Below, one piece after another: positions 4,076 to 7,984 of a DNA stretch of 64,000 nucleotides. Source of the DNA: Nitrospirota bacterium (GTDB lineage Bacteria > Nitrospirota > UBA9217). Numbering within the stretch: the first letter of the stretch is position 1; each line of letters starts with the position of its first letter. The stretch covers positions 1 to 64,000 of the forward strand of contig CAWCKW010000003.1 in assembly GCA_963796285.1 (NCBI GenBank). The letters run 5' to 3'. A program made the translations under genes and the position numbers. The notes beneath the pieces are model-generated. The model had not been told where the DNA came from. It did no database searches and saw nothing but the letters and a program-made list of their open reading frames with translations.

Positions 4076-5570
4076 TTATTCCGCCTTTTTGCAGCCGACC
4101 ATAAATAGATAAGCGCATTAGATCCCAATCCACGCGGGAATAGTGCTTCTACACTTTTTGGTTTATAGTTATGTTTTTCTAGCAACTTATCTATAATTGA
4201 CGTGTAGTCACGCTTAAACTCCTGAGCCTCAAATAGCACGTTAGAAATCTCGGATAAGTTCTCACCAAAACATTCGAATGTCAGGAATTGTAACCTCAAC
4301 CGAATTGCCTACTCTTGCCATAACGCGTATAGAGCTACTTGATACTTGCTGTGCAATAATTGGCGAATGCGTGGCAATAACTGCATATGACTTAAATATT
4401 CTGAGAAGACGCGATATTTCAGATATAAGACTTGTCATTAGACTAGGATGCAGATGAGTTTCTGGTTCATCTATCAGCACTAAGGTCTTTTCGTGAAGGT
4501 TGGACATCAAGTGTGTCAAGATGTTAAGGGCGATACGTTGGCCTGCGCTCAGCCTATTATAATAATTAGCATTTGCATCATTCATGTCATACCCAAGGTC
4601 AACTCCAAGTACATTCTTGATAGCAACCGATAACGTTTTCCGTTGTTCACTATCCATCCTATCAACTGACTCCTGAATGCTTTGAATCAGATCGTTTTCT
4701 GTACACAAATTACCATCTATTGTTCGGATGCCGCAGTACGTATATGATAATATTGCGCCTGGTTGAGGTTTGGGCAGTTCAAATTTGTCAAAAGCATTGA
4801 ATGATATTGCGACAACACTATAAAAAGACGGCGCAGGATTTACGCGGCCTGCCTTCATTCTTTTCCCTATGATAACTTCATCATGCGCGCTAGTCCCTTC
4901 CTCTGATGTTATTCCGCTTAAAGCAATGGCCAGCCTTGAAAGGAACTGCGTTTTGCCCGCCCCATTAGGGCCCACGAGCAGCATTATGTTATTATGCAAT
5001 CCCTTAGAAGCTCGAAAATTAAAAAAGAAATTTAATTCATTTTCGGCACCCGGAAGTTTCACTGTATATGTGAAGGATTTTATACTTCTTCGTTGCCCAC
5101 CAAATATTTGGGGAACCTCATCCCGCACCTTAATTACTAAAGATTTATCACGTAAAAGTGACACTTGAAAACATTCATCCTCATCAAAAGATTTCCAAAT
5201 ACGAGGGAAATAGGCAGCATCTTTAATTGCTCGAAGGAATTGGACACCAAATCCTGCACTGAACTCTTTTAGACTATTGTAGAAATCGATATTTGAACTT
5301 AGGGCACAATAATTATCAGCTAGTGATGTGAAATTATTGGGACCGTTTCAAATACCCACGTGCCAGATTTCTGCCCACGATACATAATTCGATAAGACCC
5401 GACCTCTACGTAGGAGGAATCTGGCTTCATGTAGACGTAAACGGTGCAGCTCGTGTAGTAGCTATAGTCGTTCCAGTCATCTTTTTTAGCACCACAACAG
5501 GATAAGACTTTTCAGGTCCAGGATGACTGGGCGGCCTTCGACCAGACTCTTTATCAACAATAAAAAGCAT
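4072..5570 (-). CDS. ABC/AAA_21-type ATPase, PtuA-like; frameshifted
   Basis: Walker A 'GPNGAGKT', signature 'LSAGQ', Walker B 'LIDEPETHLHP', 'ATHSP'. AGGAG RBS before ATG 5570. Confidence 0.8.
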
Positions 5571-5689
5571 CAATTCTCCTATTGAAGTGTGGGATGCGCG
5601 GACCCTTTAGGGTCACCCATTTGAAGGCTCCCTGTCAAGAGTAAAAGCCACCCCATGGCGAGAAAATGAAATTTTCTCGTCGATGTTTA

Positions 5690-6020
5690 TGCAGTCATCG
5701 TTTTCTCTACCATTGCCGTAGTTTCATTCAGTTGCGGTATTCAGTTCTTCACTGCGTCACCCATCTCGATTAAGGTTTCGCTAATGTTGTTTCGCGTAAC
5801 CCTTTCCCCGCGAAGCGGGGACCAGAAAATAATCGGCTCCTTGCCGTGTCCAAAACGGGTATCACAGATCATGTGGTTGTCAGCCAAGCCCCAGGGTGGC
5901 TCACGGCACGGGCAGTAAAGATCCCGACAACTCTATAGTATTGGGTGGAGCGGGATTACCAATCAAGTCTCGTGGTTCTTCCACACCCTAAGCAGGTTCA
6001 CCGCTCCAGCCATCCTGTAA
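5690..6020 (-). ncRNA. bridge/seek RNA of the IS1111 element (ends approximate)
   Basis: Minus strand carries TTAGGGT-hairpin-AGACTTGA matching the target flanks, and ATTA-hairpin-ATGGGTGA matching the circle junction. Confidence 0.75.
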
Positions 6021-7041
6021 TTACACAAATATCTTCTCCGGCATAAACAGCACCTCGTCGCGCATTACGTAATACGCTGCTCTCGCCAGCTTGTGCGCAA
6101 GGGCGTTGTGCGCGGCCATGAAGTTGGTTTTCTGCATCTTGCGATTATAGTATGTCCTTGCCTGGGTGTAGCTGCGCCGGGCATGCTCGGCTGCCTCGGA
6201 ATAGGCCCATGCAAGATACTTGTTGCCGCTCTTTTTGTTCCCTTTGCCTTTTACCTTGTCGTTGCTGAGCCATTTGCTTGAAACTTTCCGGCAGTATAGA
6301 TACGTAGTTGCCAACCTTGGCGAAGCGGCTGATCGGCCCGGTCTCCAGCATGATGGTCAGCGCCAGAATCTTGCCGATCCCGAATACGCTCTGCAGCTTC
6401 TCGTAAGGTGGCTTCAGCTCTACCTTATTTTCTATCACTGCCTCGATCTTTTTGATCTGGCGCGTCAGAAAATCGATGGACTCTTTGCTGACCATCCCCG
6501 CCAGAGCCAAGTCAGCGCTTCCCGCAAGAAAGGGGGTCACTCGATCCTCGGTCAGTATTTTTACATCGCTCGTCTTGAGCTTAAATCCGTTGTTGCGGCT
6601 GAGGATGTTCTGCAGGCTCACGATGAGTGAGGTTCGCAGTCTTACCAGGTGCATGCGTTTTCGCAGAAGATCGCGTATCGGCCGGTCTTCCTTCGGATAG
6701 ATGTAACCCTCGGGCAGAATCCCCAGCCGCAGCATTTCTGCCAGCCAGAAGGCGTCGTGCTGATCGTCGGCGAATTTTAGCCCGGTGTATTTCTTGATCG
6801 CTGCCGGATTGGCCAGATGAACGTGGTAACCTTCACCCATCAGCAGGTCAACCAGCCAGTACCAGTTATAGGTCGATTCCACAACGATACCGGCGATGTC
6901 ATTCTTGTACGGGTTGAGCGCCGCCTGAATACGCTCTCGATCATTCGGCAGCTTCTGTTTATATACCCGCTTGCCGGATTCGTCGATGATGCCGAGATAA
7001 CTGTTGCTTGAATGTAGATCTAATCCAGTGTACAATTTCAT
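6021..7041 (-). CDS. IS110-family transposase/recombinase; frameshift near 6300
   Basis: 'YTGLDLHS', 'VESTYNW', 'DDQHDA', 'GIGKILALTI'. C-terminal 'KKSGNKYLAWAYSEAA' in 6021-6314. Confidence 0.92.
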
Positions 7042-7132
7042 ATAGCACCTCCAAGGTTAGATTGGACTCTTCCCTTGAAGCATACCAGAGTGCCAAAACG
7101 CTCTGGTATGCTGAGGTGCCTTCATATGATTA

Positions 7133-7693
7133 TCAAGTCTTGCGGCTTGACATTCCCCGCTTCCGGGCTTTTTTATAAACCGCCTGACTCTCCTTTACGA
7201 TAAAACCAATTTTCCTCTTCGGCTTTTCCTCAACTTCTATCAATTGACGAATCGCTTCAAAAACGATCTGGAACTGCCCGTCATATTTCTTCTCCAATTC
7301 AGCCAGCTTCCGGGCCAGGTCCTTATGGGACGCGATCATCTCCCTCAGCTGTGTGAATGTTCTCATGATCTGAATGTTCACCTGGATCGCCTTGGGGCTA
7401 TTCAGAATGCTTGACAGCATCGCCACCCCGTTTTCCGTAAATGCGTACGGGAGATACCTCCTGCCTCCCCATCTTGAGGTGCCAAAATGGTACTTCAAGT
7501 TGTCGAACTCTTCTTTCGTCAGCTGTACCATGAAATCATCAGGAAAGCGATCAAGATTTCTTTTGACCGCACGCACCAGCATCTTCGTTTCAACGCCATA
7601 GAGCGCTGCCAGATCGCTGTCCAGCATCATCTTCTGGCCGCCGATCAACAAGATCTTCTTTTCAATCACCTCTATTGGCACGAGTGCTTTCAT
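7133..7693 (-). CDS. ORF6N (KilA-N-like) domain protein
   Basis: '[27 protein letters not shown]', '[16 protein letters not shown]', C-terminal 'KRKIGF'. Confidence 0.9.
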
Positions 7694-7984
7694 GTATTCT
7701 CCGTTTTGCTGTCAGAGGTCTGGGCCGTTGTTGCACCGTTGAGTTCCTGTTGAAGGGCTGAAAGGTCGTTCATGGTTCTCCGGGATGTAGACCGTCTGGA
7801 AGGAATGCTAGATAGATGAAACCTGTCGACCGAACAAGAAGAACAATATACCGGAAAGCGCTAAATTGCAAGGGGAGAGGTGGGGGGGATGCAGTGTAGA
7901 ATTCGGAGTGCGGAGTGGAAACCCTGAGGGCCAAAGAAGACAGGGGTCTGGGTGAAGGGCACAGGGGTTCATGACCTACCGCTT

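Follow-up and report, generated by a model that had tools for sequence, protein, structure and literature searches.

The closest described systems are the IS1111-family elements with a seekRNA, namely ISEc11, ISPa11, ISKpn4 and ISPst6 (sections of Siddiquee et al. 2024 on these elements, PMC11187229), and IS621 with its bridge RNA (corresponding sections of Durrant et al. 2024, PMC11208160, and of Hiraizumi et al. 2024, PMC11208158). Portions of PMC11187229 and PMC11208160 describe the set of features that marks the IS1111 group. We analysed the first 64,000 nucleotides (nt) of contig CAWCKW010000003.1 from a Nitrospirota bacterium (assembly GCA_963796285.1), a stretch called the window below, which on its minus strand carries an insertion element at 7135..5614. 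By its sequence, this element falls into the IS1111 group (IS110 family). The non-coding region at its right end very probably encodes a structured guide RNA of the seekRNA or bridge RNA type, in which a first stem-loop (loop 1) would be the target loop, a TG dinucleotide the place of crossover, and an internal ATGGG-TG the segment that reads the right end of the element. An earlier reading by a model that saw only the letters (the sequence-only reading) had proposed an IS1111 element with guides decodable against its own target and donor; every string quoted in it was found on the minus strand at the coordinates given there.

Direct reading of the minus strand gave a left flank ending in TGTCAAGCCGCAAGACT, a first TG, an element body from ATAATCATATGAAGG (from 7133) to CCTTCAAATGGG (at 5616), a second TG and a right flank starting with ACCCTAAAGGGTC; the junctions read CAAGACT-TGA-TAATC (7141..) and ATGGG-TGA-CCCTAAAGGGTC (..5600). 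The subterminal inverted repeats, ATATGAAGGC on the left and ATTTGAAGGC on the right (reverse complement of 5628-5619), are identical at 9/10 positions, carry terminal extensions of 6 and 3 nt, respectively, and are conserved in relatives, as in the IS1111 group, where subterminal repeats of 7-17 bp with terminal extensions are the rule. Also in keeping with the group, the non-coding ends differ in length, with 405 nt on the right (6020-5616) and 92 nt on the left (7133-7042).

The recombinase reading frame starts with the ATG at 7041, goes out of frame in the open reading frame (ORF) 7041..6145 and has its remainder in ORF 6314..6021. The former matches PF01548 (E 3.2e-17), while an intact second copy in the same genome (L002) matches both PF01548 (E 4.8e-17) and PF02371 (E 5e-10). 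The latter is the C-terminal Tnp domain with the catalytic serine, expected of the IS110 family and split by the frameshift in the window copy. The L002 protein scored 174.2 bits on NF033542 (‘IS110 family RNA-guided transposase’; cutoff 140), and the DEDD residues were located in the recombinase alignment at D8, E55, D92/93 and D96. The length of the recombinase, 335-348 amino acids (aa) in the 22 intact relatives translated (20/22 within 330-350 aa), corresponds to that of the IS1111 group. The only sequence matches in the PDB were the IS621 and ISCro4 recombinases; the match to IS621 was weak (E 1.9e-6), and the serine aligned to the S-G of IS621 (ESG) is retained and followed by N (S-N, or T-N in L038). 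The DEDD recombinase, the subterminal inverted repeats and the lengths of the ends thus support the IS1111-type assignment of the sequence-only reading.

A scan of one genome per species yielded 78 related loci with 41-86% protein identity, hosted, judging by record titles, mostly by metagenome genomes of Nitrospirota and Desulfobacterota and by some gammaproteobacteria. Eleven loci were omitted due to a missing N-terminus (L012, L057, L061, L071, L073, L077, L078, L080, L081, L083 and L084); the 67 others and three copies from the genome itself formed a dataset of 70, with readable guides in 68. Junctions were anchored on motifs, as the counting of BLAST end points was blurred by targets that resemble one another. 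In the aligned left ends, the five bases before TG varied by locus and were followed by TG-ATAATCAT in most, with variants in four lineages. Two of the loci, L033 and L034, lie on two contigs of one metagenome genome and have more than 60 nt of identical left flank and differing right flanks, which could be the outcome of a duplication or of flank exchange between copies.

Loop 1 sits directly after the stop codon of the recombinase and comprises a basal stem, GTGAACC, a 7-nt 5' arm, a hairpin (TGG...CCA), a spacer of 1-2 nt, a 5-nt 3' arm, TG-AT, TGGTAAT and again the basal stem. Both arms of the window copy match its site perfectly (5/5 on the left and 7/7 on the right), and TTAGGGT-N(5-25)-AGACTTGA was found once in the window and in 0/100 shuffles. 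When the relatives were compared, the 3' arm agreed with the left flank of its own locus at 147/185 positions (37 distinct pairs; permutation mean 74), and the 5' arm with the complement of the right flank at 257/336 positions (48 distinct pairs; mean 187.7). With one row per guide, the agreement was 105/130 for 26 left guides (permutation mean 50.6) and 170/224 for 32 right guides (mean 121); in each case 0/10,000 permutations reached the observed value. In an unbiased scan, in which each variable RNA column was compared with each position of the flanks, the left target flank positions LT-1, LT-2 and LT-3 fell on window positions 5966, 5967 and 5968 (50, 46 and 42 of 52 identical), which ranked second, third and fifth, behind the handshake column considered below. 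Re-targeted guides with matching flanks included AAGTC, AAACT, AGAAA, AAAAG, AATAT and TTCAC, as well as AATCA, AGGTC, ATTAT, AGATT, AGGTT and AGGGC. Because the flanks are not part of the element, common ancestry of the elements alone cannot give this covariation. The match was off by one register in the gamma group, and in L018, L030, L037 and L074 it amounted to 2/7 on the right in the two registers scored. What was found is the arrangement that defines a seekRNA or bridge RNA, a stem-loop whose match to the top strand lies 5' of that to the bottom strand and which covaries with the target. The target AGACT-TG-ACCCTAA, read from this loop by the sequence-only reading, is borne out by the relatives, in which the flank alignment and guide-target covariation that it proposed as a check have been carried out.

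In the relatives, the base following TG at the right junction can be A, C, G or T, and the left junction keeps TG-AT. Since the base after ...AATGGG-TG varies, the shared core is TG, and the TGA core proposed earlier reflects that the first base of the element and the first base of the right target flank are both A. The internal motif CTTAATC-nn-G-ATGGG-TG-NN was kept throughout the dataset, also in relatives whose proteins are 41-50% identical. In the window copy, ATGGGTGA (5764-5757, minus strand) recurs at the right end; the two occurrences of ATGGGTGAC in the window, one at the right end and one internal, make a match that is weak alone, because two or more were obtained in 10/100 shuffles (mean 0.55), and its support comes from the relatives. 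In the L013/L016 lineage, ATGGA-TG is present both at the right end and in the internal guide; L058 is an exception, with ATGGA at the right end and ATGGG internally. The base after the internal ATGGGTG equalled the first flank base in 14/14 distinct combinations (61 loci; permutation mean 5.0, 0/10,000 reaching this), and the second base agreed in 12/14 (reached by 50/10,000 permutations). Five such classes occur (AC, CA, TC, GC and TA), and the corresponding column, at window position 5757, was identical in 52/52 in the column scan. Past its TG, loop 1 in turn reads AT, which is how the left end begins, and L082 reads AG at both places. Given the reversed arm order in IS1111-type RNAs, these two-base extensions may correspond to the handshake guides of IS621, as treated in parts of PMC11208158 and PMC13626964. 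The internal donor guide of the sequence-only reading is therefore real in its ATGGG-TG portion, supported by the right ends of relatives and by the tracking of the handshake bases.

The fold of the right end was derived with RNAalifold on 18 right ends and by pair counting, with shuffled and slid controls. In the resulting structure, 94.7% of the cells were paired, and 33 pairs showed compensatory changes, compared to 13.6 in shuffles (0/500) and 10-15 in slid controls. The long-range helix closing a multi-branch domain (helix 4) had compensatory changes in 9/16 pairs, and the hairpin just after the donor guide in 4/8; the donor guide itself lies within this domain, together with a second loop (loop 2) and three conserved hairpins. 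According to a passage in Durrant et al. (PMC11208160), the donor-binding nucleotides of IS1111 bridge RNAs lie in a multi-loop, and the location of the donor guide inside the multi-branch domain agrees with this remark on IS1111 orthologues. Element boundaries, guide-flank covariation and RNA helices are established by these sequence comparisons. Downstream, a conserved hairpin followed by a T-rich stretch may act as a terminator, and on the predicted circle the putative -35 box TTGACA and GATAAT, spaced 18 nt apart over the junction, would make up a promoter like the junction promoters described in passages on ISEc11 (PMC11187229) and IS621 (PMC11208158).

Loop 2 has the layout GTGAGCC...TGG-loop-CCA...N5-TG...TTGG and is closed by GCCGTG/CACGGC. 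A role as donor loop was ruled out, as its 3' arm reads AGACY-TG and not ATGGG-TG. We consider it rather unlikely that loop 2 and not ATGGG-TG is the functional second guide module, for excision, proofreading or an alternative or ancestral site. The repetition of the loop-1 motif order speaks for such a role, as do the column scan, in which the 3' arm tracked LT-1 in 44/52 and LT-2 in 34/52, and the 5' arm, which matched the right flank at 155/240 positions compared to 127.2 in permutations (0/5,000). Moreover, the right flank of L018 fits loop 2 (5/6) better than loop 1 (3/6), and loops 1 and 2 together span about 170 nt, in line with the 145-170 nt of the long seekRNA, to which the Discussion of PMC11187229 assigns no role. 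However, the flank agreed with loop 1 at 40 of the 51 positions where the 3' arms differ, with loop 2 at 8 and with neither at 3, and the mean match to the right flank was lower for loop 2 (3.88/6) than for loop 1 (5.00/6). The two bases after TG are not conserved in loop 2, whereas AT is invariant in loop 1; the partial tracking can be explained by shared descent or by conversion between modules, and the short RNA alone was sufficient in ISEc11, according to the pertinent section of PMC11187229. None of the papers listed in a literature search dealt with this point by title or abstract, and the supplement of PMC11187229 and Extended Data Fig. 10 of PMC11208160 may already show a second loop or a donor arm for other IS1111 elements. 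With similarly low probability, the RNA could comprise three guide modules, namely the target loop, a second loop of similar build with arms that follow the target just near the crossover, and a guide in the multi-loop that reads the right end and carries its handshake; loop 2 would then work in the long seekRNA, and reading of the left end would not involve a classical antisense arm. If so, a role of loop 2 might be to hold on to the flanks of its own element while this is excised, or to verify the site.

For the left end, ATTA had been proposed as the 5' donor guide. This 4-mer carries no statistical weight, and it lies in the loop of a hairpin formed by GGTTACGC (5801-5794) and GCGAAACC (5781-5774), not 5' of a hairpin. 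In relatives, the stem of this hairpin reads, for example, GTCA.TGG/CCA.TGAC, GTC.TGCTG/CAGCG.GAC or GTCG.GCTCA/TGAGC.TGAC, with loops lacking ATTA. Among 17 relatives, the left end starts with ATAATC or ATAACC in all except L003 and L020, and ATTA was found at this place in none, so that a guide function is not supported even where the left end is the same. Further candidates for a left-end guide were GTTATCA (a strand of the long-range helix), GATTTTC/GATTAT (a conserved hairpin loop), TGGTTAA (the loop-2 hairpin) and GGGGYAYCA of the gamma group, none of which showed clean covariation. As left-end arms, GTTGTCG (5931-5925) and GATTAT (5834-5829) gave no convincing covariation, with few independent left-end variants. 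Of the two arms expected in a donor loop, the right-end arm (ATGGG-TG and two further bases) is thus supported and the left-end arm was not identified.

It is accordingly very improbable that the element encodes a simple bridge RNA of two loops, with TGA as the core and a donor loop of ATTA, a hairpin and ATGGGTGA that reads ATGGG-TGA-TAAT, as the sequence-only reading had it. The strings are present, the recurrence at the right end is genuine, and both TGA and TG fit this one copy; but the third base of the right junction varies while the left junction keeps TG-AT, ATTA occupies the apical loop of a covarying hairpin, and the donor guide is located in the multi-branch domain. Its description of the element as fully decodable was likewise overstated, as no left-end guide was found, the donor guide is embedded in that domain and the copy is damaged in both gene and RNA. 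That the internal flank-like segments act as DNA, either as recombinase-binding or decoy sites or as relics of nested insertions, with the protein picking the target, is a similarly improbable explanation, for although no transcript was observed and junction capture could in principle give identity between internal segments and junctions, capture would have to recur in each lineage across 26 left-guide classes and 5 handshake classes, the segments lie between helices whose compensatory changes point to selection on RNA pairing, and RNA co-purification and reprogramming are reported for IS1111 elements in a part of PMC11187229.

A number of observations weigh against a guide RNA of the proposed kind. 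Right ends were scanned for complements of TG plus the left end, with G-U pairs allowed, and compared between lineages, and no convincing left-end guide emerged. The motif GL-P----S(t)G, which is described as conserved in IS1111 transposases in a section of Siddiquee et al. (PMC11187229) and is not the definition of the group, was not found: the clade reads YCRKVSxxWxSN at this site (L002 residues about 260-275), with S-N instead of S(t)G and the G, L, P and following G absent. An Rfam 15 scan of 5000-7800 (E <= 1) returned no matching family. L002 carries the guides of the window copy, yet its site reads AGACC-TG-ACCCTGA, with one mismatch per arm; L033 and L034 are poorly matched (1/5 on the left, 3 and 4 of 7 on the right), as is L019 (2/5 on the left). 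The permutation tests, moreover, ignore relatedness among the elements. Contigs from RNA libraries lie on the right-end parts 5610-5754 and 5833-5912 at 90-100% likeness, but they represent relatives at 90-95%, DNA carry-over cannot be excluded for them, and transcription is not demonstrable from them. An orthologous empty allele was not found in 40 relatives queried with the left-flank gene, which gave only paralogues of at most 70% identity.

Under the favoured reading of a guide RNA encoded in the right end, this RNA would be made from the junction promoter on the excised circle, bind the recombinase and direct recombination. The 5' arm of loop 1, TTAGGGT, would pair with the top strand right of the crossover and the 3' arm, AGACT-TG, with the bottom strand left of it, so that insertion would take place at AGACT-TG-ACCCTAA. 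Crossover would occur at the TG common to the target and the element ends. Each 3' arm would continue two bases beyond TG, into the neighbour present after recombination, which is the AT of the left end for loop 1 and the AC of the right flank for the internal ATGGG-TG, the latter reading the right end from within the multi-branch domain. This handshake arrangement would resemble that of IS621, read on the opposite orientation.

A genome-wide search for further copies returned L002 (G000:C13:350746-352274; 98% identical, with an intact 348-aa ORF), L003 (73% identical and full-length, without any ORF above 144 aa) and three fragments. The fragments are a 5'-truncated right end still ending in ...AAATGGG-TG (C12:1106410-1106649), a middle piece of a right end (C12:1054905-1054957) and a left-end stump with the gene start (C12:2027410-2027483). 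The element family has been decaying in this genome for some time. In L002, a 4-nt difference (L002:2600-2641, G000:C13) abolishes the usual stop (…EKIFV*) and adds nine codons to the recombinase, which becomes 348 instead of 339 aa long; the extension enters the 5' strand of the loop-1 stem.

Alignment of the three full-length copies showed the extra T at 6298 to be unique to the window copy, and the frameshift that the sequence-only reading had placed near 6300 is real when judged against intact L002 and contigs from three public runs. The non-coding region of the window copy has further private indels (+C at 5952, +T at 5886, -4 at 5755 and +A at 5740). Owing to the 4-nt deletion, the hairpin just past the donor guide has lost part of its 5' strand. 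The window copy is the deviant one, because the public-run contigs covering the indel sites all carry the L002-like state; its five private indels could represent real decay or assembly errors. It is probably inactive and at most mobilised in trans by L002. One public-run contig of 2,002 nt is the L002 copy with the flanks of L002. None of the public-run contigs bridged the empty site or the circle junction, or covered the flanks of the window copy, and three joints listed from these runs stem from relatives at 90-95%, not from the window copy.

The insertion is located exactly at the TGA stop of an upstream gene with an ORF6N domain (ORF 7133..7693, minus strand, PF10543), and this stop survives, since the core supplies TG and the first base of the element is A. 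The left flank is part of a short repeat, GTCAAGCCGCAAGAC..., present in six close copies genome-wide, the one in the window included. These follow the pattern GTCAAGCCGCAAGAC(Y)TGA..CCCTAnAGG at C12:880252, 1119804, 1573210, 2037699 and 2048641 and at window 7137-7151, and have unrelated surroundings. The uninterrupted paralogous repeat at C12:2048641 reads GTCAAGCCGCAAGAC-TG-ACCCTAAAGGTTCC, which is the predicted empty site minus one T, and only four further AGACYTGACCCYR sites are present in the genome. On the other side, ACCCTAA falls within the palindrome GACCCTAAAGGGTC. In other genomes, TGTCAAG is likewise found in left flanks, at a distance of five or six bases upstream from the pentamer that matches the guide. 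Within the element, the hairpin in the leader of the recombinase gene is formed by CATACCAGAG...CTCTGGTATG, and relatives hold the pairing with other letters, e.g. CATAGCAGAA...TTCTGTTATG. A neighbouring ORF (4262-5164, minus strand) contains AAA_21/AAA_15 ATPase domains (PF13304) and is annotated as ‘putative AbiEii toxin, type IV TA’, which together with the ORF6N gene suggests a mobile or defence-type neighbourhood. The positions of all features are collected in Table 1.

Table 1 Features of the IS1111-group element and its target flanks, in window coordinates
Feature	Position	Strand	Basis or remark
Left target flank (LT) AGACT, outside the element	7136..7140	minus	Identical to left target guide 5970-5966; covariation of flank and guide among relatives
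Left copy of the TG core	7134..7135	minus	TG at both junctions in aligned loci
Left end, 92 nt, with ribosome-binding site	7042..7133	minus	Direct reading; alignment of 70 left ends
Left terminal extension ATAATC	7133-7128	minus	Within left end
Left subterminal inverted repeat ATATGAAGGC	7127-7118	minus	Direct reading
Conserved hairpin in left end / 5' leader of recombinase gene	7110-7081	minus	Alignment of 70 left ends
Recombinase gene, split by extra T at 6298	6021..7041	minus	PF01548 on ORF 7041..6145; ORF 6314..6021 without family match; 339-348 aa when intact, in relatives
Loop 1, predicted target-binding loop (seekRNA-like)	5943..6012	minus	Basal stem with 7/11 pairs compensatory; guide-flank covariation
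Right target guide TTAGGGT	5991-5985	minus	Loop 1, 5' arm
Loop-1 hairpin GTGG/AAGAA/CCAC	5984-5972	minus	Direct reading
Left target guide AGACT	5970-5966	minus	Loop 1, 3' arm; with core and following base AGACTTGA, 5970-5963
Loop-1 core TG; handshake AT	5965-5964; 5963-5962	minus	Direct reading
Multi-branch domain, closed by long-range helix 5931-5911 / 5717-5694	5694..5931	minus	RNAalifold and pair counts
Loop 2	5843..5907	minus	Motif order of loop 1; stem covaries (helix 6)
ATTA of the sequence-only reading	5782..5785	minus	Apical loop of covarying hairpin; not supported as guide
Donor-side guide ATGGG with core TG and handshake AC	5756..5764	minus	Equals right end; AC equals first two right-flank bases
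Conserved hairpin, then T-rich stretch, terminator-like	5656..5682	minus	Helix 12, 8/9 pairs compensatory; upstream of -35 box
TTGACA, putative -35 box	5633..5638	minus	CTTGAC in 17/18 right ends; CTTTAC in L030
Right subterminal inverted repeat GCCTTCAAAT (5628-5619) with terminal extension GGG	5616..5628	minus	Direct reading; kept in relatives
Right copy of the TG core	5614..5615	minus	Junction alignment
Right target flank (RT) ACCCTAA, outside the element	5607..5613	minus	Complementary to 5991-5985; covaries in relatives

On an unchanging scaffold, the clade provides about 26 left and 32 right guides that were re-targeted in nature, with five handshake classes and a clear TG core, and so a natural table of the tolerance of IS1111-type guides, exemplified by the L002 site with its one mismatch per arm. 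It also bears on left-end recognition in the IS1111 group and on the role of the second loop of the longer RNA. For annotation, the lesson is that an apparent TGA ‘duplication’ can be a TG core followed by a coincidental A, and that the insertion left the stop codon of the target gene intact.

Homing to repeated structured sites is a property of IS4321/IS5075 and of the IS1111-attC group. The element described here likewise inserts in a specific orientation at one position of a short repeat (about six copies), although, unlike in those groups, the target repeat is uncharacterised and is, as far as tested, neither a transposon end nor an attC site. With IS621 it shares bispecific guides, one arm on the bottom strand left of a dinucleotide core and the other on the top strand right of it, a single dinucleotide core common to target and donor, and two-base handshake extensions that would pair with the partner DNA after strand exchange. 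It differs from IS621 in that the RNA lies in the right end and not the left, the arm order is reversed and the core is TG and not CT; the handshake bases, as drawn in the orientation of the element, extend the arms that would bind the bottom strand, and the donor guide lies in a multi-branch domain with only one readable donor arm. Compared to the IS1111 elements with a seekRNA, against which it was set by their descriptions, it belongs to a different clade (Nitrospirota, Desulfobacterota and gammaproteobacterial metagenomes), has the target AGACY-TG-ACCCY and carries its catalytic serine in S-N instead of S(t)G. Features in common with them are the DEDD recombinase, about 340 aa long, the short terminal extensions outside the subterminal inverted repeats, the long non-coding region 3' of the gene and the natural re-targeting seen between relatives. 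The stop codon is followed by a stem-loop of about 70-80 nt, with the top-strand match 5' of the bottom-strand match and both overlapping at the insertion point, and the right end bears a -35 box that would form a junction promoter, again as in the seekRNA elements. The element is thus a clear natural case, in an undescribed clade, of the mechanism described in 2024 and not a new mechanism.

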